Part shown: in pieces, positions 547 to 36,698 of the stretch
Numbering within the stretch: position 1 is the stretch's first letter
How the letters are laid out: each line of letters begins with the position of its first letter
Virus record (IMG/VR): IMGVR_UViG_3300005841_000032
Coordinates: 1 to 64,000 of that record
DNA: 64,000 nt
Direction: 5' to 3' (one strand)
DNA from: a virus
Notes under the pieces: model-generated
What the model was told of the DNA's origin: nothing
Seen by the model: only the letters and a program-made list of their open reading frames with translations
Databases searched by the model: none
Program-made: the position numbers and the translations under genes

Positions 547-3060
547 TCATAGTTCAAGATAAACAAATTCATTCTTTGCACGGGTTAAACAAACGAAGGA
601 CAAATTCGATTCTTGTATTAATTGTTCCTTTGTTACCGCATACTGACTCGGTATTAGTTTTTTTCCTTCGTATTTCTCAATGAAGAACACCCTATCCGAT
701 TCAAGGCCTTTTGCCTTGTGCACAGTCATTAATGCTATTCCATCCCTTTCATTATCATCAAATACTGTTTCTATAAACGTTTCTACCTCTGATAAGGTGT
801 CAAATTTATCAAATAACATTCGTAGTATTTCTATTTTTTCAAGAATTATAGCGTATTGGGGGTGATTTTTAGGATTAATCAATTTTTTTCCGGTTTTCTT
901 TGAAATATTTTCAATTTTCTTCACTAAAATTTGTTGAAAATACAATTCTATCTCTTCTTTATCCTCTGTATCCGGACAATTTACAAGTAATGCTAATAAT
1001 CCCTTTTCTAATTCCTTTCCCACTATATAAGCTTTCTTTCCCATCTTTATTAGCTGCATGAATGCATCTACAAGTGGACGAGTATTGCGGCACAAAACAA
1101 AATCTCCGTCTTGCGCTTCTTCTAATTTTCCTTTTCTTACTATTCCTTCTTTTCCTTCTGGATTCTCTTCGATTTCTTTATATACCTTTTGTGCTTCTTT
1201 TACAATGTTCTTAGCGCACCTGTAACTTATTGATAATGGGAGTGTTACGGTATTAGGTTGGCTTGCAAAGCTGTCAAATGAATTAACATCTGAACCGCGA
1301 AAAGCGTAGATAGATTGCCGAGGATCACCGACCAAAATATTTCTTCCTGTCATTGGTTTTACTAACCTGTTCAAGAACAATTGATCTAGCTTACTCATAT
1401 CCTGTGCCTCATCGATTGCCAAGTAATCATATTGTGGCATTCTTATTTCTTTATTCCTTACCGGCATCTCTATAAAGTCCTGAAAATCTACATTTAAACT
1501 ATAATCATTTGTATCGTTGTATTTATAGAAATTCTTAATTGCTCTTATCATTATACTTATCTGTTCTTCTTCTAAATCTATCGCATAATTTTCTAATAAT
1601 TTTTCTACTTCTTCTTTTTCTGGCTTTGTCATTGTTGCTCTTGCCAATTTCATTACTCTGTCTACCTCATAGATTGTACTCCATTTCTTTCTATTATTTT
1701 TTTCTCTTTCTAATAATGGAAGTATAAAATCTATCTGTTTGTTTTCTTTTAATGTTACGTTGCCGGGATAATGTTTTCTAATTGCTCCAAATCCAATGGA
1801 GTGCATCGTACTACATTCGAAGCTATTTTCTAATCTTTCTTTCAGTTCATTTACTATGTGTTTATTAAATGCTACAAATAAACCTCTTTTTCCATAAGGA
1901 ATTAACTTGGATATTTCTACAAGAACAGTTGTGTTGTGTGTAACTGTAAAATCTCCAAGAAGGAATCGACCATCGCCATCTATTTCAAAACCATAATAAT
2001 TCCCTATACCTTTATACTCTATAGAAAATCCAGTATTTAAGACATCTTTCTTTTGCTTTCTAATCTTCGCCTTTTTTCTTTTTATTTTACATGGTATTTC
2101 GTGAACATTTCCACAAATAGAAATTCGCCAATAATATCCAATAAAATTACTATCCTTAATCGTTGATTTTTTATAAGTATAATTGGAATAAAATCCCAAA
2201 CTTCTAGCTAAAAATAAAATATCATTCTTGAGGACATCAAACTTAGTAGAAATCTCATAATATCCTCGTGAATAATGACCATCAGTATCAAGTAAGCCTG
2301 CCAATAATTGAAGTCTGTTTTTTCTTGAATTTATAAGATATTCTTTTGGTATAAATACCTCTTTGTCACTTAAACATCTTAAAAATTCATTTCTAAACTT
2401 ATTTCTTCCTGATCTTTTGCCGCTATTTTGAGTGGTTAATGAAATTCTATAGCATGAATCTCTATCATTATCAGAAACCATTTTAACTTCAATACCTTCT
2501 TCTTTTATATTCTTTAAGTAACTGATTAGCTCAATGTCTTTCGCATTTATAGAAACTGTAGGGGTTCCATTATGCTTTGTTCCATCTCCAATCCATACTC
2601 CCAATAAATAAGGATCAATGTTAGTTTTTTGTTTTGCAAACTCAACTCCAACCCTAAACTGTTTAAATTGATGTCGTTGCCATTTGGGCACCAATAGCCA
2701 ATCATTTAATGGAATATCTATTGTATCGTTTTTATTTATTCCTGACTCAGAATAGGAAGCTTTTAAACTTAATATGTGACTTTTATTGCACCCCCATATA
2801 TCCCCCTTTACAGGAATAACGTCATACATTTCATCTTCTCCCATTACAGTCGATAAAACATTTCTAGGCATCGAATCCGGCCCCATCAATTGATCACCTT
2901 GTTTTACATCTTGAACCTTTTTTATTTCGCCGCTAAACATCAAAACAGGAGTGTCAAATTTTAGACACTTACCGGCACCCGCTGTCGCCTGTATAGCTAT
3001 GTTCTTATTAGTAGTAATTACTTCTGAGAATATATTTTCTTGGTAGTGGCTGAACTTCAC
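547..3060 (-). CDS. UvrD/Rep-like SF1 helicase with intein
   Basis: Walker A ATAGAGK|T, IDEAQD, VGDPRQSIYAFRG, SYRC, TVHKAKGLE, VCLTRAK. Confidence 0.92.
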   Translation of the reverse strand: MKFSHYQENIFSEVITTNKNIAIQATAGAGKCLKFDTPVLMFSGEIKKVQDVKQGDQLMGPDSMPRNVLSTVMGEDEMYDVIPVKGDIWGCNKSHILSLKASYSESGINKNDTIDIPLNDWLLVPKWQRHQFKQFRVGVEFAKQKTNIDPYLLGVWIGDGTKHNGTPTVSINAKDIELISYLKNIKEEGIEVKMVSDNDRDSCYRISLTTQNSGKRSGRNKFRNEFLRCLSDKEVFIPKEYLINSRKNRLQLLAGLLDTDGHYSRGYYEISTKFDVLKNDILFLARSLGFYSNYTYKKSTIKDSNFIGYYWRISICGNVHEIPCKIKRKKAKIRKQKKDVLNTGFSIEYKGIGNYYGFEIDGDGRFLLGDFTVTHNTTVLVEISKLIPYGKRGLFVAFNKHIVNELKERLENSFECSTMHSIGFGAIRKHYPGNVTLKENKQIDFILPLLEREKNNRKKWSTIYEVDRVMKLARATMTKPEKEEVEKLLENYAIDLEEEQISIMIRAIKNFYKYNDTNDYSLNVDFQDFIEMPVRNKEIRMPQYDYLAIDEAQDMSKLDQLFLNRLVKPMTGRNILVGDPRQSIYAFRGSDVNSFDSFASQPNTVTLPLSISYRCAKNIVKEAQKVYKEIEENPEGKEGIVRKGKLEEAQDGDFVLCRNTRPLVDAFMQLIKMGKKAYIVGKELEKGLLALLVNCPDTEDKEEIELYFQQILVKKIENISKKTGKKLINPKNHPQYAIILEKIEILRMLFDKFDTLSEVETFIETVFDDNERDGIALMTVHKAKGLESDRVFFIEKYEGKKLIPSQYAVTKEQLIQESNLSFVCLTRAKNEFVYLEL
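1933..2967 (-). mobile_element. Class 1 intein with LAGLIDADG endonuclease (345 aa)
   Basis: CLKFDT...VTHN followed by Thr, inside Walker A; LLGVWIGDG and LLAGLLDTDG motifs. Confidence 0.92.
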
Positions 3061-12567: not shown

Positions 12568-13130
12568 ATATCTAATTTTTTTATTTCTTCTGATAAAGAC
12601 TCATAGTCTGATTTTAAGTATACAGAAGAAATAGATTTCATAAATTCTTCATCGTATTCATCAGCGGTTACTAACATGCCGTAAACTTTAATATCAAACC
12701 ATTTTAGTTGATCTGTAATTTGTTTTACGCCTTGTTTGTAATCAGGTTGACCATCAGATACAATAATAATGATTTTACGAAATCCGGGTCTGCCGTTATT
12801 TACTAATTCATTAACGGCCAATTGTAAGCCGTCAACCATATTAGTTGAACCAGAAGAGTGATAAATATTAGAAATGGCAACTTGTAAAGATTTCTTGTCA
12901 TTTGAAAGAGGTGAATCTAAAACGGCATTAGTGGCAAATGTGACTACTCCTATCTTTACAGTCTCTTCGCTTAATTTGACTTTGTTTAATAATGATAGAA
13001 AAGACTTCTTCATGTATTCCTCATGCCCATTAACTGAAGCAGAAAAGTCCCCCACAATTAAAATATCAATTTGTAAACAGGGATTTTCAGGAGTGATAAG
13101 GATACAAAGAAGAAATAATAAGACTTTCAT
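12558..13130 (-). CDS. vWA domain protein
   Basis: MIDAS DFSAS, GSTN, IIVSDG; hydrophobic N-terminus. Confidence 0.85.
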   Translation of the reverse strand: MKVLLFLLCILITPENPCLQIDILIVGDFSASVNGHEEYMKKSFLSLLNKVKLSEETVKIGVVTFATNAVLDSPLSNDKKSLQVAISNIYHSSGSTNMVDGLQLAVNELVNNGRPGFRKIIIIVSDGQPDYKQGVKQITDQLKWFDIKVYGMLVTADEYDEEFMKSISSVYLKSDYESLSEEIKKLDICL

Positions 13131-13996
13131 AAATATTCTCTTAATTGATCAATATTTTTTAATGCCTTTAATCTTTTTAAAACGCGCGGCTTGAATTTGG
13201 CCACATCCTTACTTTTCATTTTTAATTTTCCAGCTATATTGTCTGTTTGTTGATGATCTTCACCATTTAACCCAAACATAAAAATGAAAATGTCATATTC
13301 GCGTTGACTTAATTGATACAGGAACTTATTCAGATCGAAAGCTAGTGAGCCCTCGATATCCTCTGCATCTATTCCTAATTCATTGTTGCTTAATACATCT
13401 TCAAGGGTATCTTCATTATCATGTTCCTTGCTACTTCCTATGCCGTCTTGCAATGATGGATTATAACCGGCGTGAAGAACGGCTTCAATAATATCATCTT
13501 CATTTAAATCTTGATATCGTTCACATATATCATCTACATTTGGATACCGTTGTAATTTTTGTTCAAGTTCTGAAATGATCTTTTTAATTTTTGTAACAAG
13601 GGCTTCGCGGTTAGCAGGTAATTGAATGGTACGAACATTATAGTCAAATGATGAAATGATGCGTTTTCGAATCCACCATACAGCATATGAAAAGAATTTC
13701 CATTCCTTTCTAACATCAAATCTATAAGCAGCTTCTATGAGACCATCATTGCCTTCGCTGATAAGATCAAGTAATGGAACACCACCGCCTTGATATTTCT
13801 TAGCAACTGATATAACGAATTTGACATTGGCTTTGACTAATTTATCAAGTGAGGAAACATCATTTGTTTTTTGAATCTTGGCAATGAGTATCTTTTCGTC
13901 CGCTTTACTCAGTGGCTCATAATCTCTTATTTCATTAAAGAAACGATTTAGATTATCGTTATAGACGTCAGCCGTTATTTTTCGGGATATTTTCAT
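13127..13996 (-). CDS. RNA polymerase sigma-70 family factor (RpoD-like)
   Basis: LVKANVKFVISVAKKY, DLISEGN.GL..AA.RFD, KFFSYAVWWIR, region 4 LSQRE...FGL. Confidence 0.93.
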   Translation of the reverse strand: MKISRKITADVYNDNLNRFFNEIRDYEPLSKADEKILIAKIQKTNDVSSLDKLVKANVKFVISVAKKYQGGGVPLLDLISEGNDGLIEAAYRFDVRKEWKFFSYAVWWIRKRIISSFDYNVRTIQLPANREALVTKIKKIISELEQKLQRYPNVDDICERYQDLNEDDIIEAVLHAGYNPSLQDGIGSSKEHDNEDTLEDVLSNNELGIDAEDIEGSLAFDLNKFLYQLSQREYDIFIFMFGLNGEDHQQTDNIAGKLKMKSKDVAKFKPRVLKRLKALKNIDQLREYL

Positions 13997-23250: not shown

Positions 23251-23982
23251 TTATTTTTTAGAATCTACCAAACGTTTTATATAAAATTCTGATTGAACAG
23301 GATTTTTTATTTTTATTATCCAGCCTTCTTTTGATTCTTTATGTACATATAAACGGTCCCATTCATTTTCACTTTCTAATTCAAATTCATCTTTATCAGT
23401 ACGTTCTTCCCATTGTTTTTCTGTAAGCCGTTTCTTAACTTTTGTTTTACTTCCATTAAAAGGGTTGTTGATCATTTTTTTATTTCTAGTTTCAAATTCG
23501 CTTAATTTAGTTCTATTTAAATAGTAAGTGATTAACGCCTTACTGATTCCCATTTCCTCTGCTATTTCTTTGTTTGTGTATCCATTTAGTCGTTTGGTTA
23601 AAATCTCTTTTGTTGTTTCTTCATTGCCCGTAAATACTGCTCTATCTTTTGGAACTGAATTTATCAACTCCATATATTCGCCTAATAATTCAGTTGCTAT
23701 ATATTCATCTTCTGGAGTAGTCGCATAAAAAATATTTTCATCAAATTCAACAAATTTTCTCTGTCCTTGATTTACCTTATTATAAAACCAAACGTTATTT
23801 TTCAAATGAGCAAAAAAGGTATACTTAACAGTCTTAATAATTGTACCTATATGTTCATCAAATAAATCTCTTTCACATTTATTCCACCAAGCTAAATAAG
23901 CATCATGTAGTATGTCTCTATATAACTCACTATCTAATTTAAATGAATAGCTTCTAGCCTTTCTATAATTTTCAACATTCAC
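23251..23982 (-). CDS. Divergent sigma-like factor with region-4 HTH
   Basis: DILHDAYL (region-2-like), GYTNKEIAEEMGIS. Confidence 0.6.
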   Translation of the reverse strand: MNVENYRKARSYSFKLDSELYRDILHDAYLAWWNKCERDLFDEHIGTIIKTVKYTFFAHLKNNVWFYNKVNQGQRKFVEFDENIFYATTPEDEYIATELLGEYMELINSVPKDRAVFTGNEETTKEILTKRLNGYTNKEIAEEMGISKALITYYLNRTKLSEFETRNKKMINNPFNGSKTKVKKRLTEKQWEERTDKDEFELESENEWDRLYVHKESKEGWIIKIKNPVQSEFYIKRLVDSKK

Positions 23983-24533
23983 GCTATATGTCCTGCTAAT
24001 TTCAAATGTTCTTTATTTCTGTAAATACTATACAAATCTGAAATGATTCCCTCATAAACATTAAATAATGTAATGGGAAGAGGTTTAAATATAAATTCAG
24101 GTATTTGAATGACCGCTATTGCTTCGCAATCTGGCTCAGTCATTTTATATGCAGTCAATTGCAATACCTGCTCAAGATAAACATTTGTGTTACTCTTAAA
24201 GTCACAAAGATATTTCTTTCCATTAGCTTTTAAGTAAATATCATATCGGCCCACAAACCAATCATGTTCTACTTTCTTTTCAATGGCGTATATTTCTTCT
24301 ACGTTATGCTCTTCAAAAAATTTAAGAAAATTTGCTTCATGTTCAGAGTTTTCAAAAGGAATAGAATCTTTAATAAAACGATCTATTTGCGAATGTAAAC
24401 TTATACCTTTACTTGTTGATTGTTTACGATGTTCTGCAAGTGAAATTCCTTCAAGTCCTATTTTGTTTGCCCAGCCCAAAAGAGCGGGTTTATCAAGTAA
24501 ACCTACGAGAGTTGAAATTGAGGGTTTTTTCAT
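23979..24533 (-). CDS. PD-(D/E)XK exonuclease
   Basis: PSIST, G..LH..I, GRYD, DFKS, LQL.AY. Confidence 0.8.
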   Translation of the reverse strand: MKKPSISTLVGLLDKPALLGWANKIGLEGISLAEHRKQSTSKGISLHSQIDRFIKDSIPFENSEHEANFLKFFEEHNVEEIYAIEKKVEHDWFVGRYDIYLKANGKKYLCDFKSNTNVYLEQVLQLTAYKMTEPDCEAIAVIQIPEFIFKPLPITLFNVYEGIISDLYSIYRNKEHLKLAGHIA

Positions 24534-25411
24534 GCTGCTTGTTTGAATGACGATCTTCTAATTGATTGATTCTTATTCCTAGATTCCTGAACGCATTCTT
24601 TAGAACAATATTTTACTTTATTAGCCATTGGAATAAAAGTCGCATTGCATATTGCGCAATTAATAGTTCTTCTTTGTTTAAAGACAGGAATATGATTCTT
24701 TAATTTCCATCCAAAGCAACCGTTCGATTTGCCAAATGCAACACTTTGTAATGAGGACGGTTTTAATCCAATTGATCTGGCAAACTTAGCTACGTTATGA
24801 ACTTTAACTTCTTCGCCGCTTGGAGAAATTAAAACTACATCACTACACTTAAACATCTCAATTCCATTAGCAACGTTTTTAACTCGCGTCTCATTGCGTC
24901 TAATTTTAGTCTCTTCGCTCTGCTTATAACCTTTTTGCTTTTTGGTTTCTAATCCACGCAAAGTAGCTTCTTTTGGAAATTCCTTCCCCAACCAATATCT
25001 AGTTGGATTTTTTAATTTAGCTTCACGCTGCTTTTGTTTAGTTGTTTCCTTTGTTGAATAACCATAGTTGCTAAAAGCTTTTTTAGAAATATTAAAACCT
25101 ATTAAGGATTTATATGGCTGAAATACATCTAAATAATTTTGCTCTATAACATTAACCAGTCGCATCTTAAAATTTTCTTTAGATTCGCCTTTTATTTTAT
25201 CTACATGTTCTAATACCTCAAACTTAAAACACTCGCGGCCATATTTATTGAATGAATTTTGCAACTTTGAATTCTCATGATAATTACCACGCAATCGACA
25301 AAAATGATCTTGTTTTCTTTTATATAAATTATATGTACTGCCAATATAAATTAATCCATTACGAATACAAGTTATGCAATATATTCCGGGATTTTTAGTT
25401 ATCTCCTTCAT
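24530..25411 (-). CDS. GIY-YIG homing endonuclease with C-terminal Zn finger
   Basis: GIY..YIGS, R...H, EQ..LD, FN; CAIC...YCS.EC. Confidence 0.88.
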   Translation of the reverse strand: MKEITKNPGIYCITCIRNGLIYIGSTYNLYKRKQDHFCRLRGNYHENSKLQNSFNKYGRECFKFEVLEHVDKIKGESKENFKMRLVNVIEQNYLDVFQPYKSLIGFNISKKAFSNYGYSTKETTKQKQREAKLKNPTRYWLGKEFPKEATLRGLETKKQKGYKQSEETKIRRNETRVKNVANGIEMFKCSDVVLISPSGEEVKVHNVAKFARSIGLKPSSLQSVAFGKSNGCFGWKLKNHIPVFKQRRTINCAICNATFIPMANKVKYCSKECVQESRNKNQSIRRSSFKQAA

Positions 25412-26078
25412 TTTCTTCGTCTAATTCTATACTCATCTCTTTTTCATCCCACGCTTTGGAGAAATCTATATCTGCAAACAAAGACGCAAGTCCAGTAATT
25501 TGTTTAAGCCTAAGCATCTCTTCTCTATCCATTCCGAGATGTCTTTGAATCCATGCGTCACTCATACCGGCTTGCACTAATTCCCCAACAATATTAGACA
25601 TAAGATCAATTGAATGCACCCCACGTGCCCTATTGTGTCTTATAGTACTTGCCATCCTGTTAGCAATATCCTTTTGAGAATTGCGAATAAACGTCAATGG
25701 TATCCTGCCCTTAGTCGATTCACTAATATCATTAAAAGTCTTTTCTATTAATCGCCTGTGTGCGCCATCCACCACTTTAATCTTTCCCTCTTCCGTTTTA
25801 TCAGTTACAATAGACATTGTATAACCATCTTCCGAAACAGAAGTGTGTAACAAATCCAAACTCAATTTATCCATTTTGTTTGGATTATATTCATTGACTT
25901 CTACGTCATCTGATTTAATCCACAAAACGCAATCAACTGGATGATGCTTTAGGGGGCTTACTGAATGTAACTCTAAACGTATCTCATTCAGCAAATCAAT
26001 TTGGTCATCAACATTTGAAACGCTGCTTATTTGTTCTTTAAGCAAGTCAACAAGTTCTTGGACTATACTATTCTTCAT
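25395..26078 (-). CDS. IbrB-like ParB/Srx-fold protein
   Basis: HPVD.V.W, NEYNPN, VVDG.HR, STIRHNRARG, LGM..EE.LRLKQ.TGLA. Confidence 0.9.
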   Translation of the reverse strand: MKNSIVQELVDLLKEQISSVSNVDDQIDLLNEIRLELHSVSPLKHHPVDCVLWIKSDDVEVNEYNPNKMDKLSLDLLHTSVSEDGYTMSIVTDKTEEGKIKVVDGAHRRLIEKTFNDISESTKGRIPLTFIRNSQKDIANRMASTIRHNRARGVHSIDLMSNIVGELVQAGMSDAWIQRHLGMDREEMLRLKQITGLASLFADIDFSKAWDEKEMSIELDEENEGDN

Positions 26079-27444
26079 TTTCTTCTTCTTTTTCTAATTG
26101 TTTAGATTGTACTCTAGCATCCTTCAACCTTCCATATCTCTCCAACGCCTTCTGCCTGATTATATTCTGATCCTTTGTACGAGAACATCCCATATACTGC
26201 AAAGCGTAATCGTTCTTCATTATTGTTGCGCATACTGCTTTCCAACTTGGACAATGACGGAAATCTGATATTGAAGTGTCTTCAGGGAATCCAGATTTGA
26301 TTTTCACAATTTCATATACTCCCGGCTTGGTGCAAAGTTTAGAAATTTCATGCGTATTTTCAATCTCAATCCCCTCTTCGATCATTGTCTTTATCACCTT
26401 TGGATTTCTTCCATATCCCTTTTCAGCCCAAGTCTTTTGAAATCTCTCAAGATTTTCAACTACTTTTTTTTTAAATCCTTCCGGCAATGTTGTCAAAAGA
26501 AAGTAGGCGTATTCCTTCCATGTAAAGTGATTTGGTTTAGTTATTGTTTTCCATCCCATTGCAGTTGTACCACCATACAAACCACCAAAGTTAACGCCAT
26601 TAACGCGACTTAACATTTTACCCCAACTATTCGGATCAATTGCCTTATATAGCTTTAGGTTTTCCTGCCCCGATTGATGGAATGGACTAGCAACCCTCAT
26701 TTGATCTACACTTAACCCAGCTTGCCAATACAAGTCGTAAATCTTATTGTAGTCAAATTCAAACTTATAATTCGCTACCCAAATATCCTCAGTAACCCAA
26801 TCATACAAAGGATAAAAATTCACTGTGTTTTGATCGACTACCTTTGAATATTTCAATCCCTTATGCATATACTTTCTATGCTTTGAGGTAAATATTGCCC
26901 TTCGGGTAAGTGACTCTTGCGCCCTCAATCCAATTAACACGGCTGTTCTGCCGTATGTTTTACCATACCACTCTGAAAACTGGATACGAGCATCGAAACC
27001 CTTAGTTCCTTTTATAAACTCATAGGGACAATTGCTATGATTTATCACATAGTCATGTTTAGGCATTGGCCTAACCCACAATTCTTTCTTATCTTCATCC
27101 CACGGTATCCAACGAGGTTCATACATTGATACAGAACATGCAGCCGAAATAGGTAAGCAAAGCCAATATCTACCCTTAACGTCACTCATTGCCTCAAAAG
27201 TACGTTCTGCATATTCGTGTGTATACTTGTAATCGGCTTCGTAATCTTCATAGTATACCGATAACTTATGTAATAAATTGTTTTCCTTTGCATACTTATA
27301 AGCCAAATTCAATAATACGCCACTATCCTTACCACAAGAAAAAGCTACCAATACATTTTCAAAATCTTCAAAGATTAATTTCAAGCGTTCCATGACTGCC
27401 TGATAGACATTCTTTGACTTTTCTTGCTCTTTCATCCAGTTCAA
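26068..27444 (-). CDS. IbrA-like PAPS-reductase-family (PP-loop) protein, DUF3440
   Basis: AFSCGKDSG, W.PWD, GLRAQES..R, YPLYDW...DIW, YN.IYD, QMRV. Confidence 0.9.
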   Translation of the reverse strand: MNWMKEQEKSKNVYQAVMERLKLIFEDFENVLVAFSCGKDSGVLLNLAYKYAKENNLLHKLSVYYEDYEADYKYTHEYAERTFEAMSDVKGRYWLCLPISAACSVSMYEPRWIPWDEDKKELWVRPMPKHDYVINHSNCPYEFIKGTKGFDARIQFSEWYGKTYGRTAVLIGLRAQESLTRRAIFTSKHRKYMHKGLKYSKVVDQNTVNFYPLYDWVTEDIWVANYKFEFDYNKIYDLYWQAGLSVDQMRVASPFHQSGQENLKLYKAIDPNSWGKMLSRVNGVNFGGLYGGTTAMGWKTITKPNHFTWKEYAYFLLTTLPEGFKKKVVENLERFQKTWAEKGYGRNPKVIKTMIEEGIEIENTHEISKLCTKPGVYEIVKIKSGFPEDTSISDFRHCPSWKAVCATIMKNDYALQYMGCSRTKDQNIIRQKALERYGRLKDARVQSKQLEKEEENEE

Positions 27445-27646
27445 TTCTTTTTAAGAAGCTATAAAGTTCACATTTTTCTCTCGAATATCCAAGAGATTCT
27501 AATTGACGATCATTTTTTAGTATTGCAATGCAAACACGTTGATATGAAGGCACTTTATCGAATATTTCAGGTGGCGATTCATCCGGGAATTCAGGATAGC
27601 ACCTTTTTTGCCATGTTTCTATGTACTCTTCTAACTTCTTTCGCAT
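27368..27646 (-). CDS. Stand-alone paralog of the IbrA C-terminal domain
   Basis: TWQKRCY..FPDES..VPSYQRVCIAILKND..L..LGYSR aligns with the C-terminus of 26068..27444. Confidence 0.75.
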   Translation of the reverse strand: MRKKLEEYIETWQKRCYPEFPDESPPEIFDKVPSYQRVCIAILKNDRQLESLGYSREKCELYSFLKRIELDERARKVKECLSGSHGTLEINL

Positions 27647-28013
27647 ATTTTATTTTCCACTTATCAATAGTTTGTTGCGCTATTGCGTCCGCATCTTCTC
27701 TCTGTTTATCGGTTAGCTCTTTCCACGCCATCCTAGTTATATATTCTGGAATACCAAGTTTCCAATGAACAGCGCAATGGCCTACAAAAGCACGTTGATT
27801 CACTGAGGCGTTAGTAAGGCTATTGATCATTGTTTGCGGCCATGCTTTTACTACTTTCTTCATTGCTCTACCATACTTAACCCAATCTCCTGTAAATCGT
27901 ATGGCTTTTCGCAACATCTTTCTTTCTAATTTTTCATCTTCAATCTTTTTCCACATTCCCGCTTTATAATCTTCCCACTCCCAATACGGTATCCAAACTT
28001 GTTTTAACTTCAT
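27591..28013 (-). CDS. Trp-rich hypothetical protein linked to IbrAB
   Basis: PYWEWEDY.AGMW, N.RAF.GH.A; overlaps the module. Confidence 0.7.
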   Translation of the reverse strand: MKLKQVWIPYWEWEDYKAGMWKKIEDEKLERKMLRKAIRFTGDWVKYGRAMKKVVKAWPQTMINSLTNASVNQRAFVGHCAVHWKLGIPEYITRMAWKELTDKQREDADAIAQQTIDKWKIKYAKEVRRVHRNMAKKVLS

Positions 28014-31000
28014 TAGAACAATTCTATTTGCGTTTTTTCGTTGCCATAAACAACGTTCTTTTTATTATATGTGTCAAATTTTATTTGTCCATTCATCATT
28101 AATCCTACTCCTTCACCTCTTTCTTCTATCTTATTTTTAAATCTTTCCCATTCACTGTTCCACAAAGTAATATCTACCAAATCATTATTATGATCAATAG
28201 TTAATTTACACATTTCCCCTTTCTTTGTTTTACGCTTAACTATTTCTTGAATGATTCCGCCTATCACCACATTACATCCTTCATTCTCTTTCATTTGAAC
28301 TTGATCGGACGTTACGTGTTGTTGATAATCGAATCCTAATTCGTCTACCATTGTACTGTAATCAAAATAACCAAAGCCCGATAAATTACGCTGCATTTTA
28401 TACCAATAGAATTCTTTGTAATGATCTTCGGGCAAGTCAGAATCTAATTTATATAGTGCATAAAATTGCTCCATTAGTTTTTTTCTTTGTAATGGATGTT
28501 GAATAGCATGTAAACTATCAAAACAACCTGAATAAATTAAATGCTTAACTACTCTACTGTTTACCGCTTGAGATTTGCAGCGTTTTACAAACTCTTCCAG
28601 CGAAAAAAAATCACCACGCTCTTCCCTTTCTTTAGCAATATAATTCAATGCTACTTCGCCTACGTGTTTAATCCTACCAATAGACCAATAGATTGAATTA
28701 GTTTCAAAATCGGTGTAGAATGTTGATTTAGATTTATTAACATCAGGCGGGTGAAGTTTTATTTGATCGAACTTTCTTAGCTCACTTACTCTTTTTGCTA
28801 CTTCATCATCACTTGCATGTTGTAAAGATACTGTCCAAAACTCAAGTGGATAATAATGTTTTATCCATGCTGTTTGATAACCAATGAGAGAATATTCAAT
28901 CGCGTGACTCAAGTTAAAAGAATACGCCGCAAACGCTTCAATCTTATTCCAAATTTTTTCTGCTTCAAATTTTACACAACCTCTTTCAACGCAACCCGCT
29001 ACAAATTTATCTCTATAACTTTGCATTTTCTCCAAATCTTTTTTACCTGTAGCCTTCCTTACGCCATCGCCTTCCGTTAAAGTAAATCCAGCTAATACTT
29101 GAACCATCCTAATAATTTGCTCTTGATACGTATAAAGACCGAAAGTATCCTTTAATATTTCTTCCGTTCCCCAATCATATTCAGGCTCTTTTTTACCAAA
29201 CTTAATCTTCGCATAATTCTCATGCGCTCCTGAATCCATAGGGCCGGGACGATAAAGGGCATTCATCGCTGCAAGTTCTTCTATGCTTTCAGGTTTTACT
29301 TCCCTACAATACGCCGCAAGTCCATCAGTAGTAAATTGGAATATGTCTTGCGTTAATCCTCTTTTGAATAAAGAATCGAACACCCTTTTGTCCTTAGTGT
29401 CTATTTTATTCAAATTTATTTTTACGCCATTGTGTTCTTCAATTAAGTCTATCATTTCTTTCAACTTGTCCAATTGACTTAATCCAAGAATATCAGCTTT
29501 CAAGAAACCACAATCATCTAATTGCGTTCCGTCCCACTCACTTATTAAAACCCCATCTATTAATTTACAAGGAAACCAATCGTATATGGTCATTCTTTGG
29601 CCATGCTTATTTTTTGTTGGTGTAATAATTACACCCGCCGCATGTATAGATGATGACTTTGGTTGGCCTAAAACTAATGGTATATCCTGAATAGCTTCTA
29701 AATGCTCATTGATAAATTGCTTTAACTTATTATTCCCTATTGTGGCATGAAAAATACTTGAATATTCTTCATTGCTTTCTTCAATCATTCCGCCAAAGTA
29801 ATTTATGTTTTGAGGTTCTTCACCGCGGAAACGCAACAAATCTCTAAACGCTGCCTTACTTTGCATTGTTGAATATGTACCAATGGAACAAACATTGTCT
29901 TTACCAAATCTTTGTTCCATATATCTTTTTACATCCTCTCTTCTTTCAGAGGCAAAATCGGTGTCAATATCCGGTAATCCTTTACCGATCCTAGATTCAT
30001 TCAAAAACCTTTCGAAGATAAGTCCATATTCAATCGGGTCTACTTTTGTAATATTACAAAGCAAAGCTATTAAACTACCACCAGCACTACCACGTCCAGT
30101 ACCCACCATTACATCATTAGCTTCGCACCAATTGATTATGTCTCTAAGAATTAAGAAATAATCAATGAAGCCACCTCTTGAGATTACATCATATTCTACT
30201 TCAATTCTTTGTGTATAAATATCTAAATCCTTTCCCTTATCAATGACATTAGTTTGTAATCCATCTTGAATTACACTCCAAAATAAATCTTCATTAGTTG
30301 CAAATTGTTCTTTCTCTTCTTCTGTCATTTCATATTTAGGCAAGTGAATTTCACCCGTCTTAATCTGAAAATTACATCCATCTGCTATTTCATTGGTGCA
30401 TTCTAGTGTCCTTTGCAATATTTCTAGTGCCCAATCTTCGCCTTTTGTTTCAAATAGTTCAATAGATTGCGCCGCTATGTCTTCTAATGACTTAAAATAT
30501 TGATCTTCCGATTGGTATTCAAATCCTACCTTTCCAATGAAGTTCAATATTTTCTTAACTGGATAATCTTCTTTATCCAGATAATAAGAATCAGGAATTA
30601 AAACTAATCCAATTATGTCATTATAATATTGTAAATATGTTTTAAGACAATTTAGACATTGAATGTCTCTTTGCTCTGCTTTATATTGAACGGGGTCGAA
30701 TTGAAAGTAATATTTTTCAAACTGTGATTCTAAATACCGCTCTATCAAATCAGGATTCAACATCGTGTCATTTTGAAACACACAATACAATCCTTTTGAA
30801 TTATTCAATAGATGTTCTTCTGTGATATGAGTAGAGTTATTATCTACATTTAATTGCTTGTGAATCCTTAGCAGATTAGCCCACCCTATGTCATTTTTGA
30901 CATATAGTTTTACCTTATATTCTTCCTTTTCTTTTCGTACCGTGTAAGTTGCTCCAATAATTGACTTTAATCCTGCTTTCTTTGCTGCCTGTTGGAATTT

Positions 31001-31438
31001 CAATGCCCCCGCAAGCGTATGTTTTTCAGCTATACCTACTGTTTTTATTCCTATCCATTTAGCTTTATTGCACCAATCAGTATAATTTCGAGAGCCTACA
31101 CATAGCTCATAGCCACCATGAATTCCAAGATATGGAAACCCGCTTAATTCTTTCGCTTGCCCTATGTGCTTTAGTATATTGAGTTGTATTTTTTCTTCTT
31201 TCGTTGAGCTTCTATATACCTTTCCTCCAAAAGAGAAACACCAGAAATCTACTAATATAGCTTCTGGTGCGTTTAATTCATCTTCATCAATGATTAAATT
31301 AAAATCATCATCAAATAATTTTCCTCTCTTTGGCTCTATACATAGATGATCTTTGCCATCTAACTTAAATGATCTATTACTAGTCCATTCAACATTTAGA
31401 TTATTAGACTCTATCCATTGTTTTATGAAGTCGATCAT
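28013..31438 (-). CDS. dnaE: DNA polymerase III alpha subunit (family C)
   Basis: PHP domain, GRGSAGGSL, FERFLN, PDIDTDF, HAAGV, YRPGP, YQEQ, YSFN.SHA. Confidence 0.95.
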   Translation of the reverse strand: MIDFIKQWIESNNLNVEWTSNRSFKLDGKDHLCIEPKRGKLFDDDFNLIIDEDELNAPEAILVDFWCFSFGGKVYRSSTKEEKIQLNILKHIGQAKELSGFPYLGIHGGYELCVGSRNYTDWCNKAKWIGIKTVGIAEKHTLAGALKFQQAAKKAGLKSIIGATYTVRKEKEEYKVKLYVKNDIGWANLLRIHKQLNVDNNSTHITEEHLLNNSKGLYCVFQNDTMLNPDLIERYLESQFEKYYFQFDPVQYKAEQRDIQCLNCLKTYLQYYNDIIGLVLIPDSYYLDKEDYPVKKILNFIGKVGFEYQSEDQYFKSLEDIAAQSIELFETKGEDWALEILQRTLECTNEIADGCNFQIKTGEIHLPKYEMTEEEKEQFATNEDLFWSVIQDGLQTNVIDKGKDLDIYTQRIEVEYDVISRGGFIDYFLILRDIINWCEANDVMVGTGRGSAGGSLIALLCNITKVDPIEYGLIFERFLNESRIGKGLPDIDTDFASERREDVKRYMEQRFGKDNVCSIGTYSTMQSKAAFRDLLRFRGEEPQNINYFGGMIEESNEEYSSIFHATIGNNKLKQFINEHLEAIQDIPLVLGQPKSSSIHAAGVIITPTKNKHGQRMTIYDWFPCKLIDGVLISEWDGTQLDDCGFLKADILGLSQLDKLKEMIDLIEEHNGVKINLNKIDTKDKRVFDSLFKRGLTQDIFQFTTDGLAAYCREVKPESIEELAAMNALYRPGPMDSGAHENYAKIKFGKKEPEYDWGTEEILKDTFGLYTYQEQIIRMVQVLAGFTLTEGDGVRKATGKKDLEKMQSYRDKFVAGCVERGCVKFEAEKIWNKIEAFAAYSFNLSHAIEYSLIGYQTAWIKHYYPLEFWTVSLQHASDDEVAKRVSELRKFDQIKLHPPDVNKSKSTFYTDFETNSIYWSIGRIKHVGEVALNYIAKEREERGDFFSLEEFVKRCKSQAVNSRVVKHLIYSGCFDSLHAIQHPLQRKKLMEQFYALYKLDSDLPEDHYKEFYWYKMQRNLSGFGYFDYSTMVDELGFDYQQHVTSDQVQMKENEGCNVVIGGIIQEIVKRKTKKGEMCKLTIDHNNDLVDITLWNSEWERFKNKIEERGEGVGLMMNGQIKFDTYNKKNVVYGNEKTQIELF

Positions 31439-34025: not shown

Positions 34026-34246
34026 AATTCAGGCGCTTCAAGTGGTTGCCATGCAATAGGTTTTGAGTTACCGCGACCCCACCCACTATCGTCTTGTCCC
34101 CAATTATAATGCTTCCCGCCAGAATAACCATAGTCAACAACTGATTCAAGCCAACCAAATTCATATCTTTTATTACCCATATACATAAGAATCTTTTCGC
34201 CTATGTTAGGTAACTGGTCTTCTGGTTTTATCCAAAGGTTTTTCAT
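34022..34246 (-). CDS. DUF551-like small protein
   Basis: WI...DQLP...AWQPL..P. Confidence 0.6.
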   Translation of the reverse strand: MKNLWIKPEDQLPNIGEKILMYMGNKRYEFGWLESVVDYGYSGGKHYNWGQDDSGWGRGNSKPIAWQPLEAPEL

Positions 34247-36698
34247 CTGACTTTAATGGTTTATTCCTGATTATTTGTTTTTTCTCAACGTCCCAAAATT
34301 TCTTATTAGTTTCTGCTACATCTATAAATCTACCTTTAGCTACATCTTGCGCAATAGAGAATGTTGATTGCCAACTTTCAATCCTATAATGTCGCTTCTT
34401 TTCAATATGAAGTCTCATTACACTATTGTCATATTCATCCTCTGTTTGATTCAGAGTAAGCGCATAAGCAAATGGATCAAGTGTGGCTTTTAAATTTGAA
34501 ATATCATTTCTTGTTATTACCCAATTGGGATTATTCCAAAATTCTTTCTTTATATCGCTTGCCTGAGTTACCGCAGCTACTCCTATTTTAAATTCAGTAG
34601 CTATATTTATTATCTTTTCACTTGTTGCTTTTTTTCTTGTAGATGTTCCGTCCTGACCTGTGCTATATCTTTTACCGTCACCGGGGTCAAATCCCTCCAA
34701 AAGGTCAAATAGAACTAATCCTATCGGAGCTTCTTTTAACAAATCTATTAATATATTTCTACAATCCAAAATGGATGCGTTGTGAAATTGTTCAAATACA
34801 TGCACATAAATTTCACCTGCTTGCGCTAAATATGCTTGTTTGGCTTTTTCTATTTTTTTAATATCTGCTCCCGATAAATCACCTCTTCTAATATCATGTA
34901 CTTGCACCCCCGTCCACATTGCATCATATCCGTTTTCTATTTCTTCTTTAGTGCTATCGCCCGATGCAAGATGAAGGACTGGAATGCCTCTGAATGAAGC
35001 GTGAAAACCTAATGAGCGAAGCAAAGTTGTGTTATGAGTCACAATGCAATGGTCAGTTAAATAAAGACTCGTTGAATTATCCACTGCTATGCATTGCGTT
35101 TGCATTTTACCAACATATTCTATTTTATCTATAAATCTAGGCGTTAAATAGGATGTTTTAGGAACCACTCTTATTGCTTTTCTTTTTAAGAAGAATGGGT
35201 TAATTTCATTAGGTAAATTAATCATAACGTCATAAGCCAATCTCTTGGATATTCTTTTTTCACCCCTGTATGTATATTTTTTATATCCCCTGTTAACAAT
35301 GTGGCCGGTTCCACCTAATCCATTCACCAATTCTCTCACGTCTTCAGCTAATTTAAAGGAACTTGTATGAAATATTGAACAAGTTCCTTCTCCAGATAAA
35401 GAGCCATCAGTATCCATTAAGCCTCGTAATAAATTCACCCTATCATCTAATGATGAATATAAATAATTACATGGAATAAATTTATCGTATGAATGAATCT
35501 CTCTACCAAATAATTTCCTTAACCTACTTCCCAATTTGCAATAAGATAATCTATAGCTACATTTATCTATATGAATAGGCTTTATTTGCAGTTCATTTCC
35601 AACTCTTTCCAATATTTCTTTATCAATTGTGCTTATAGTTGGCGTTTCAAAAAAATGTCCATCTCCAATAAGCGCCCCCATAGTATATGGAGGTATTGGT
35701 AATTCTTTTTTATTAAAATTAATTGGTTTACAAATTGGCAGTTTATAATTCAAAACATTTTCGCGATCCCTGCACATGAAAATTCTTTCTTTTCCAATCA
35801 TTTCTTTCGTATTCAAGATAGTGTGTCTATCTGGGTCAATAAAGGTGGATGCATATCTCTTAGAGTCGGCTACTCTTTTTCTATCATTAGCTGTATACAC
35901 TTTCCATAAATGATTTTCATCACAATCTACGTATACCCCATCTGAAAAATGAATTCTGTATACATCTCTAATACCTTGAGGGAAAACACCAATAACTTTT
36001 ATCGTTTCACCTTTTTCAGATAAAACGCTATCTCCAACTTTTATTTCACCCATAGTGGTAAATCCATCAGGTGTATAAATTTTAGAATATAATGGTTGGG
36101 CTTTACCGCTTCCAGAACGAGCTACTACCAATAATCCTGTCCCGGCGTCAATCCCCCCGTGGGTTAAATGATCAAATGCTGGTAACCCCGTTGGTATCTT
36201 TGTTGTGCTGAAATCTCTATTCTGTCTTTCGTATTGCCGTTTATCGAATTGCTCATAAATTTTACTATACTGTTTTCGCTTTAATGAAAACTCATGCAAT
36301 TCTTTGTAACCATCTTTTGCTTCCACGTAGGCTTTATCGTACTCACCTCTCGCAAATAATTCCTCTGAACCTTTATGTAATTCAATAAACTTTGCGCGTC
36401 TTATATACTCTTCAAATGTTTCAAGTATGGTATCTTTCTTATCATATATATTGCATTCAGCAATCTTAGCAATAATACTAGTCGCGTCACGTGAATTAAC
36501 ATGTTGACTTATTAACCCAACTGTTGGCGTTTTATTATTTGCACTATGAAAATCAAAGATATATTTAAATATCTGTTTTTCAGGCTCGCTATTCAAATAC
36601 GAATATTGCAAATGAGCTTTAACAATCTCTAAAATGTTTTTAGAAACTATACAAGATTTTGCAAGTTCTATTATAAACTCACTATTTAACTGACTCAA
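34206..36698 (-). CDS. DnaB/gp41-like replicative helicase with intein
   Basis: IPTG...D....GG, ARSGSGK|TT, VLFD, VTQ, LNQ. Confidence 0.88.
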   Translation of the reverse strand: MSQLNSEFIIELAKSCIVSKNILEIVKAHLQYSYLNSEPEKQIFKYIFDFHSANNKTPTVGLISQHVNSRDATSIIAKIAECNIYDKKDTILETFEEYIRRAKFIELHKGSEELFARGEYDKAYVEAKDGYKELHEFSLKRKQYSKIYEQFDKRQYERQNRDFSTTKIPTGLPAFDHLTHGGIDAGTGLLVVARSGSGKAQPLYSKIYTPDGFTTMGEIKVGDSVLSEKGETIKVIGVFPQGIRDVYRIHFSDGVYVDCDENHLWKVYTANDRKRVADSKRYASTFIDPDRHTILNTKEMIGKERIFMCRDRENVLNYKLPICKPINFNKKELPIPPYTMGALIGDGHFFETPTISTIDKEILERVGNELQIKPIHIDKCSYRLSYCKLGSRLRKLFGREIHSYDKFIPCNYLYSSLDDRVNLLRGLMDTDGSLSGEGTCSIFHTSSFKLAEDVRELVNGLGGTGHIVNRGYKKYTYRGEKRISKRLAYDVMINLPNEINPFFLKRKAIRVVPKTSYLTPRFIDKIEYVGKMQTQCIAVDNSTSLYLTDHCIVTHNTTLLRSLGFHASFRGIPVLHLASGDSTKEEIENGYDAMWTGVQVHDIRRGDLSGADIKKIEKAKQAYLAQAGEIYVHVFEQFHNASILDCRNILIDLLKEAPIGLVLFDLLEGFDPGDGKRYSTGQDGTSTRKKATSEKIINIATEFKIGVAAVTQASDIKKEFWNNPNWVITRNDISNLKATLDPFAYALTLNQTEDEYDNSVMRLHIEKKRHYRIESWQSTFSIAQDVAKGRFIDVAETNKKFWDVEKKQIIRNKPLKSDEKPLDKTRRPVT
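35031..36101 (-). mobile_element. Class 3 (Ala1, WCT) intein with LAGLIDADG endonuclease (357 aa)
   Basis: AQPL start; HLW (block B), QCI.V (block F), VTHN|T; LLRGLMDTDG. Confidence 0.88.

Follow-up and report, generated by a model that had tools for sequence, protein, structure and literature searches.

The stretch of DNA analysed here, referred to as the window, is the first 64 kb (64,000 nucleotides) of IMG/VR record IMGVR_UViG_3300005841_000032, a phage record of 110,427 bp that is complete by CheckV and belongs to a 110-kb Bacteroidota phage. The window has a low GC content and nearly all of its genes lie on the minus strand. Next to the gene for DNA polymerase III alpha (dnaE) it carries a cassette of four genes, which encode a phage IbrA/IbrB pair and two small proteins that are referred to here as W140 and mini:

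27591..28013, minus strand: W140, a Trp-rich, all-α protein of 140 amino acids (aa) from an unnamed family (AlphaFold2 (AF2) model, homologue survey)
27368..27646, minus strand: mini, 92 aa, a free copy of the C-terminal (DUF3440-end) domain of IbrA (Pfam, BLASTP)
26068..27435 (27444 if the start is TTG), minus strand: IbrA, 455 or 458 aa, consisting of PAPS_reduct and DUF3440 domains and a mini-like tail (Pfam, PHROG 2302)
25395..26078, minus strand: IbrB, 227 aa, with a ParB/Srx fold (PHROG 2159, profile search)

The open reading frames (ORFs) and gene junctions, the latter read directly from the sequence, confirm an earlier proposal made from the letters of the window (the original prediction), namely that dnaE, W140, mini, IbrA and IbrB form a series of overlapping genes, all on the minus strand. 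The dnaE stop codon and the W140 start codon share a TAATG and overlap by 1 nucleotide (nt) at 28013, and W140 overlaps mini, which lies in the +1 frame, by 56 nt (27591-27646). The overlap between mini and IbrA is 68 nt with the IbrA ATG at 27435 and 77 nt with the TTG at 27444, from which the ORF is already open; the ATG is probably the start, since it fits the family consensus MxKxxxxxNVY. IbrA and IbrB are adjacent, co-oriented and overlap by 11 nt, and both hallmarks of an IbrA/IbrB pair, a PAPS_reduct plus DUF3440 protein and an adjacent small ParB/Srx partner, are present.

Related loci were gathered by pattern scans based on the family alignments (80 viral and 4 genome loci) and by tblastn, which located the W140 gene in Pseudoalteromonas phage XCL1123, Mycobacterium phages Gaia and Nebkiss, and Pseudomonas phage Amjad_SA. 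The surveyed set comprises 87 loci (80 from IMG/VR, 4 genome contigs, and phages XCL1123, Gaia and Amjad_SA), all ORFs of which were translated and searched with two-round hidden Markov models (HMMs) of the window proteins. In every one of these loci W140 adjoins IbrA and/or IbrB, or sits at a contig end; W140 is an obligate IbrAB partner in this subfamily. Gene order is permuted between loci (W140-mini-IbrA-IbrB, IbrA-IbrB-W140-mini, IbrA-W140-mini-IbrB and IbrB-W140-mini-IbrA), and mini, where present, always directly follows W140. The original prediction had been staked on the two small genes being conserved beside ibrAB, and this gene-neighbourhood survey finds that they are.

The mini protein matches positions 137-179 of the 182 positions of Pfam DUF3440 (E 7.6e-8, above the curated cut-off) and is characterised by the motif PS[YW]..[IV]C..IL[KR]ND, in which the [KR]-N-D element is nearly invariant (N45 in 100% and D46 in 98% of all 114 mini-type sequences). 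Its description in the original prediction as a copy of the C-terminus of its neighbour IbrA holds as far as homology is concerned, with 41% identity to IbrA residues 386-424 (BLASTP, E 1e-8), but a different group of IbrA proteins is closer. IbrA occurs in a long form (425-457 aa, as in the window), with a tail that is weakly like mini, and in a short form (~402-413 aa), whose tail of 75 residues aligns with the mini profile over its full length (~E 1e-29). The N-terminal helix K-I-x-x-Y-I-x-x-W-E-x-R-[CG]-Y is found in the short-form tails and is absent from the long-form tails, and in comparisons with group HMMs free mini proteins score 73.5 bits against short-form tails versus 30.4 bits against long-form tails. 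Judged by these scores, the nearest relatives of mini are the tails of a different IbrA subtype and not the tail of its own partner.

The distribution of the mini-type domain follows the form of IbrA. Of the loci with a long-tailed IbrA, 47 of 47 encode a free mini, whereas none of the 29 loci with the short, mini-tailed form does, and in two further loci (L041, 526 aa, and L085) mini is fused in frame to the N-terminus of IbrA. One locus (L081:4160-7634) encodes a long-tailed IbrA, IbrB, W140 and a short mini-tailed IbrA with no free mini, and has the appearance of a natural intermediate between both IbrA architectures. In-frame W140::mini fusions were also found in other metagenomes (P0076, P0135 and P0157, 193-206 aa), although these are known as proteins alone and a sequencing frameshift is possible. 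Whichever gene encodes it, one mini-type domain and no more thus accompanies each W140, as would be expected if these subunits bind each other. Because of this complementarity and the W140::mini fusions, IbrA, IbrB, W140 and mini look like the parts of one complex.

W140 contains 9 Trp among its 140 residues and has no match in Pfam, PHROGs, NCBIfam or PADLOC, nor does its profile match any PDB sequence. The AF2 model is all-α with a predicted local distance difference test score (pLDDT) of 94, and the fold has no PDB match (best Foldseek E 0.5; best VIA-align Z 4.4 over 48,161 representatives). A search of BFVD returned a member of its own family as the sole match, and the ESM Atlas gave no usable match. 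The family is nevertheless large by sequence: there are 99 close homologues among proteins clustered at 90%, and the profile extends to 774 clusters at 50% identity, 583 of which match at E 1e-10 or better. The longer forms found are of a single kind, a fusion to a GIY-YIG/NUMOD3 homing endonuclease (P0100) that gives no clue to the role of W140. Residues conserved across the family (248 members) are mainly W, G and A, plus E14, N72, E90 and R94, and W140 is on this account probably a non-catalytic binding or adaptor protein. A His79-Cys80 pair was considered as a catalytic or sulfur-carrying dyad and rejected; it is invariant in close relatives, but across the 248 members the two positions are Gln in 36% and Ala in 44% respectively.

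IbrA matches PHROG 2302 at 7e-96 and, above cut-off in both cases, Pfam PAPS_reduct (PF01507, 1.8e-11) and DUF3440 (PF11922, 5.5e-59). Structure searches with the whole protein (AF2 model, pLDDT 83) were dominated by matches to the PP-loop domain, with PP-loop enzymes overall at Z 9-15. The nearest structures to the N-terminal domain are CysD (Z 15.1) and the PAPS domain of human FAD synthase (Z 15.0), followed by APS/PAPS reductases (Z ~14) and TilS/MesJ (Z 12.6). All positions of the PP-loop S-x-G-K-D-S other than x are invariant in alignments of 69 and of 38 sequences, and the defining features of the PP-loop superfamily, an SxGxDS pyrophosphate-binding loop after the first strand and a Rossmann-like fold, are both present. 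IbrA is a PP-loop ATP pyrophosphatase of the PAPS-reductase/CysD/FAD-synthase clade. The original prediction had drawn attention to the reading SCGKDS in place of SGGKDS; the window does have SCGKDS, but among the 69 sequences 42 have G at position x, 14 have A, 12 have C and one has S, and the Cys was rejected as a meaningful variant since it falls within this ordinary variation.

IbrB matches PHROG 2159 at 6e-60, and Pfam ParB_N weakly (E 0.034). A profile built from 32 homologues matches the solved ParB structure 4UMK (E 1.3e-5) as well as Noc, Spo0J and SbnI, and places a DGfHR or DG(A/F)HR motif opposite the GERR box of ParB. There is in addition a conserved RHNRARG motif, and the C-terminal half is helical and may form a putative helix-turn-helix (HTH), although no match to Pfam HTH_ParB was found. 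The GERRxRA CTP-binding box and recognisable HTH of a canonical partition ParB are not found in IbrB.

Cysteine conservation bears directly on the chemistry that might be performed. CysH requires a catalytic Cys in its C-terminal tail; IbrA has no such ECGLH-type tail and carries the conserved [KR]-N-D motif instead. In the IbrA family no Cys column exceeds 80% conservation across 69 sequences, nor does the alignment of 38 sequences contain an invariant Cys, the IbrB family alignment has no conserved Cys column, and, taken over the aligned families, none of the four cassette proteins appears to keep a conserved cysteine. DndC requires three Fe-S cysteines plus a Cys dyad (PMC10853773), neither of which is found in the IbrA family, and on the DndC equivalog model TIGR03183 IbrA scores 22.8 bits versus a cut-off of 290.4. 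Matches of IbrA in PADLOC to DndC (1e-7) and BrxP (7.5e-5) are weak and short, and IbrB has none. Across the whole 110,427-bp phage record there is no cysteine desulfurase (Aminotran_5), no SNF2 helicase and no thymidylate-synthase-like hydroxymethylase; the first of these absences says little by itself, as the host IscS could substitute. Since there is no conserved Cys, the DndC score is far below cut-off and the phage lacks a cysteine desulfurase, phosphorothioation or thiolation by the cassette is unlikely.

Beyond its four core genes the cassette acquires optional members in other loci. An EctC-like cupin gene directly follows IbrA in 22 loci (Pfam Ectoine_synth, E 1e-36 to 1e-41), a gene for a methyltransferase-like protein occupies the same position in 8 loci (weak Pfam matches), and a GNAT gene does so in three (L083, L059 and L064), with a homologous gene in L082. 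The ‘ectoine synthase’ genes of uncultured phages sit between IbrA and IbrB (for example L006:2517-2906 and L049:7912-8286), and when embedded in this way they are probably cassette subunits and not osmolyte genes. The window cassette has no cupin, GNAT or methyltransferase-like gene; it is a minimal, cupin-less form.

Three neighbours of the cassette in the window, one upstream and two downstream, are relevant to how its borders are drawn:

28013..31438, minus strand: dnaE, DNA polymerase III alpha, with the full Pol III alpha domain set (Pfam DNA_pol3_alpha, finger, HHH_6 and PHP)
24530..25411, minus strand: a GIY-YIG homing-endonuclease-like gene (Pfam GIY-YIG, 1.3e-8)
23979..24533, minus strand: a PD-(D/E)XK nuclease-like protein of 184 aa (PHROG 298 exonuclease, 6e-12)

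The GIY-YIG gene overlaps IbrB by 17 nt and the PD-(D/E)XK gene by 4 nt. In 11 loci the next gene after IbrB, adjacent to it or overlapping it, is a homologue of the PD-(D/E)XK gene, and two more loci (L033 and L065) have one between IbrA and IbrB (E 1e-21 to 1e-41 for the homologues; the L033 copy matches Pfam PDDEXK_1 weakly). This makes the PD-(D/E)XK gene a recurrent fifth member of the cassette in 13 loci. The GIY-YIG gene, by comparison, has no homologue beside the cassette in any related locus, and because IbrB is directly followed by PD-(D/E)XK in those 11 loci without a GIY-YIG counterpart, it looks like a homing-endonuclease insertion into the cassette that is not part of its function. 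Given this insertion and the fusion of W140 to a GIY-YIG/NUMOD3 endonuclease elsewhere, homing endonucleases seem to have targeted the cassette more than once. Directly downstream of the PD-(D/E)XK gene is an ORF of 243 aa (23251-23982, minus strand) with no PHROG match.

Coupling to dnaE had been part of the original prediction, and this part did not survive the survey: no DnaE homologue lies within 6 kb of the cassette in any of the 87 related loci, and the dnaE link is therefore local to the phage of the window. dnaE is an upstream neighbour that provides context and stands outside the conserved cassette. Placement among replication genes is what endures, as the large genes that border the cassette encode primases or helicases in 8 of 10 loci sampled. 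In the window one flank holds dnaE, primase and helicases, and the other holds the nuclease, a dNMP-kinase-like gene (assigned by eye), MazG and SbcCD. Two large helicase-like proteins of the window, of 837 aa (547-3060, minus strand) and 830 aa (34206-36698, minus strand), have helicase/DnaB-like PHROG matches together with ‘terminase large subunit’ matches that span ~370-385 residues (18-401 and 191-560 respectively); the two kinds of match may stem from a P-loop ATPase domain common to both kinds of protein, or from an inserted element. Elsewhere in the window, a protein of 289 aa (13127-13996) matches an RNA polymerase sigma factor PHROG.

The neighbourhood differs in other phages that carry the pair. 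In Streptococcus and Lactobacillus phages, an SNF2-like helicase of ~400 aa overlaps the start of IbrA (L088:2279-3514 and L089:2315-3484), and the IbrAB pair of these phages of lactic acid bacteria (LAB) lies in a moron-like region after the lysin gene. In Amjad_SA a 652-aa SF2 helicase follows IbrA (L003:6534-8492) and an HTH_ParB protein precedes IbrB.

By architecture, the window cassette is a member of the IbrA/IbrB pair family and is distinct from DndC/SspD, CysH and canonical ParB. The IbrA/IbrB pair of the Escherichia coli ECOR-9 island, YbdN/YbdM of K-12 and phage pairs such as those of Streptococcus phage CHPC877 and Lactobacillus phage phiAQ113 (PHROGs 2302 and 2159) consist of the same two core proteins, a PAPS_reduct plus DUF3440 protein and a small ParB/Srx protein with DGxHR, encoded by adjacent overlapping genes. 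In contrast to the window, which has both, the ECOR-9, K-12 and LAB-type pairs lack W140 and a free mini, and the LAB phages have the SNF2-like helicase directly upstream of IbrAB. A closer likeness is found in the IbrA/EctC-cupin/IbrB cassettes of the Gaia and XCL1123 type, whose W140 and mini are ~41% and 36% identical to those of the window (Gaia and XCL1123) and have the same W140-then-mini order and overlap; the window differs from these in lacking the EctC-like cupin, in its order W140-mini-IbrA-IbrB and in its direct coupling to dnaE. DndC/DndB, and also SspD and BrxP, likewise combine a PAPS-reductase-family PP-loop enzyme with a ParB-superfamily protein that has a DGxHR-type motif, but the cassette has neither the Fe-S and dyad cysteines nor a phage-encoded DndA-type desulfurase, and its neighbours are W140, mini, IbrB, the homing endonuclease and PD-(D/E)XK in place of Dnd/Ssp partners, although no model search was made for DndD or DndE. 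CysD, the FAD synthase PAPS domain and the APS/PAPS reductase CysH, the best matches to the N-terminal domain of IbrA (Z 14-15 over ~170-190 residues), share 13-20% identity with it; IbrA differs in its additional DUF3440 of ~200 residues and in having no CysH-type C-terminal catalytic Cys.

PP-loop enzymes of this clade have options that do not require cysteine, namely adenylyl transfer, or adenylation followed by attack of an O or N nucleophile, as in CysD, FAD synthase, TilS and amidotransferases. By analogy, the chemistry of IbrA would be adenylyl transfer or adenylation with an O/N nucleophile. The reading that we favour, tentatively and with somewhat more doubt than conviction, is that the four genes encode an ATP-dependent, adenylating, DNA-directed multi-subunit modification complex that is made together with the replication proteins and uses no sulfur. 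The physical complex, DNA as its substrate, the adenylation chemistry and the biological role are all predicted from the relationships described above. The original prediction of a multi-subunit complex in a replication gene block remains the best reading of the locus, and its analogy with Dnd/Ssp-like phosphorothioation is the part that has been given up.

In the proposed mechanism IbrA, whose nearest structural relatives transfer AMP or use it for activation, would be the catalytic subunit, and IbrB, as a nucleotide-binding protein of the ParB/Srx type, would bring IbrA to DNA in a nucleotide-dependent manner. IbrA would adenylate a group on replicating phage DNA, which would then be replaced or decorated without sulfur. 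W140 and mini would act as an adaptor pair, in which W140, bound to a mini-type domain, attaches to IbrA and serves it as adaptor or regulator, and the mini-type domain could be supplied free, fused to the N-terminus of IbrA, fused to W140, or as the C-terminal tail of IbrA. CysH-type enzymes have a mobile C-terminal tail, and the conserved [KR]-N-D tail may likewise fold over the active site. In sister cassettes the EctC-like cupin, GNAT or methyltransferase-like protein would tailor the product, and the linked PD-(D/E)XK nuclease may act on unmarked DNA. A more specific form of this proposal, which we consider unlikely, is a new class of replication-linked DNA base hypermodification, in which a TilS-like IbrA would swap an adenylated base carbonyl for an amine. 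A clamp of the ParB type would guide it together with the adaptor pair, whose fold would be novel, and in sister cassettes the appended group would be tailored by ectoine-pathway-like enzymes, the GNAT and the EctC-like cupin.

Other explanations assign the cassette different substrates or no stable product at all. IbrB could be a nucleotide-switched DNA clamp with IbrA as its ATP-using partner, the two forming a regulatory machine that alters phage or prophage transcription without leaving a stable mark. The family name is linked to a single phenotype, the co-activation of prophage genes, which appears in annotations and goes back to E. coli IbrAB, reported to activate prophage eib genes (Sandt et al. 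2002); no other published phenotype is known to us. That the IbrB profile lies nearest to the partition ParB and Noc proteins is in keeping with such a role, as is the E. coli ybdO mutant, in which de-repression of ybdNM coincides with broad expression changes and is thereby confounded (PMC9068703). The intact, invariant PP-loop motif, however, points to chemistry beyond binding, as do the variable tailoring enzymes and the linked nuclease, and the cassette is located among the replication genes of large, apparently virulent phages; a regulatory machine is an unlikely account, though one to be taken seriously. The ParB/Srx fold binds ATP, GTP or CTP (PMC12704722) and includes small-molecule kinases, with SbnI among the profile matches of IbrB, and the nearest structures to IbrA (CysD and FAD synthase) act on small molecules. 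IbrB could on these grounds be an Srx/SerK/SbnI-like kinase or NTPase and not a DNA binder, and IbrA could adenylylate or consume an immune nucleotide or cofactor of the host, in a counter-defence role that would suit the moron-like location of the LAB-phage pair. We regard this as quite unlikely in view of the steady link of the cassette to primase, helicase and nuclease genes and to SF2/SNF2 motors, the lack of PADLOC matches for IbrB and W140, and the weakness of those of IbrA to DndC and BrxP.

The remaining alternatives both lean on the PP-loop domain. Modification of RNA, with IbrA acting on a base of tRNA or another RNA in the manner of TilS, TtcA or ThiI, would accord with the presence of TilS/MesJ and tRNA thiolases among its structural neighbours (Z 11-12.6), but these are outscored by CysD, FAD synthase and APS reductase, the partners (ParB, PD-(D/E)XK and SNF2) are of a DNA type, and there are no conserved cysteines for thiolation, which together make it very unlikely. 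DNA phosphorothioation like that of Dnd, Ssp or BREX-4 systems, for its part, draws on the PAPS-reductase-family PP-loop domain common to DndC, SspD and BrxP, on the weak PADLOC matches and on the fact that DndB is also a ParB-superfamily protein (PMC10853773). Set against the DndC equivalog score, the missing desulfurase and the lack of conserved Cys in IbrA and IbrB, with the Cys of W140 so often replaced by Ala, it is scarcely credible.

Several points weigh against the DNA-modification reading that we favour. W140 and mini together occur in 5 of the 224 GenBank phage records with an IbrA-like match (40 full length). The HTH of IbrB is a putative one that has no Pfam match, and W140 has neither a known fold nor clear catalytic residues, so that its adaptor role is a guess. 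Small-molecule chemistry would account just as well for the cupin, GNAT and methyltransferase partners. A literature search returned no report of DNA modification for Gaia, XCL1123 or Amjad_SA and no mechanistic study of IbrAB or DUF3440, and we know of no experiment on any member of the family.

New here are the cupin-less minimal form, the rule of one mini-type domain per W140, the two kinds of natural fusion, the family-wide lack of conserved Cys in the four proteins and the recurrent PD-(D/E)XK partner. Pairs of the IbrA/IbrB type abound in phages and prophages, where they are routinely given the wrong label of a sulfur-metabolism, partition or ectoine gene. No cysteine chemistry is to be expected of the cassette, and its natural fusions point to subunits that are probably in contact. 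As the window cassette is without tailoring enzymes, it defines a minimal set for co-expression, and, because the cultured phages Gaia, XCL1123 and Amjad_SA carry the same four genes, the role of the cassette is directly testable. If the cassette does make a new DNA mark, phages would have a further, PP-loop route to modified DNA, and many virome genes called ‘auxiliary metabolic genes’ would be accounted for.

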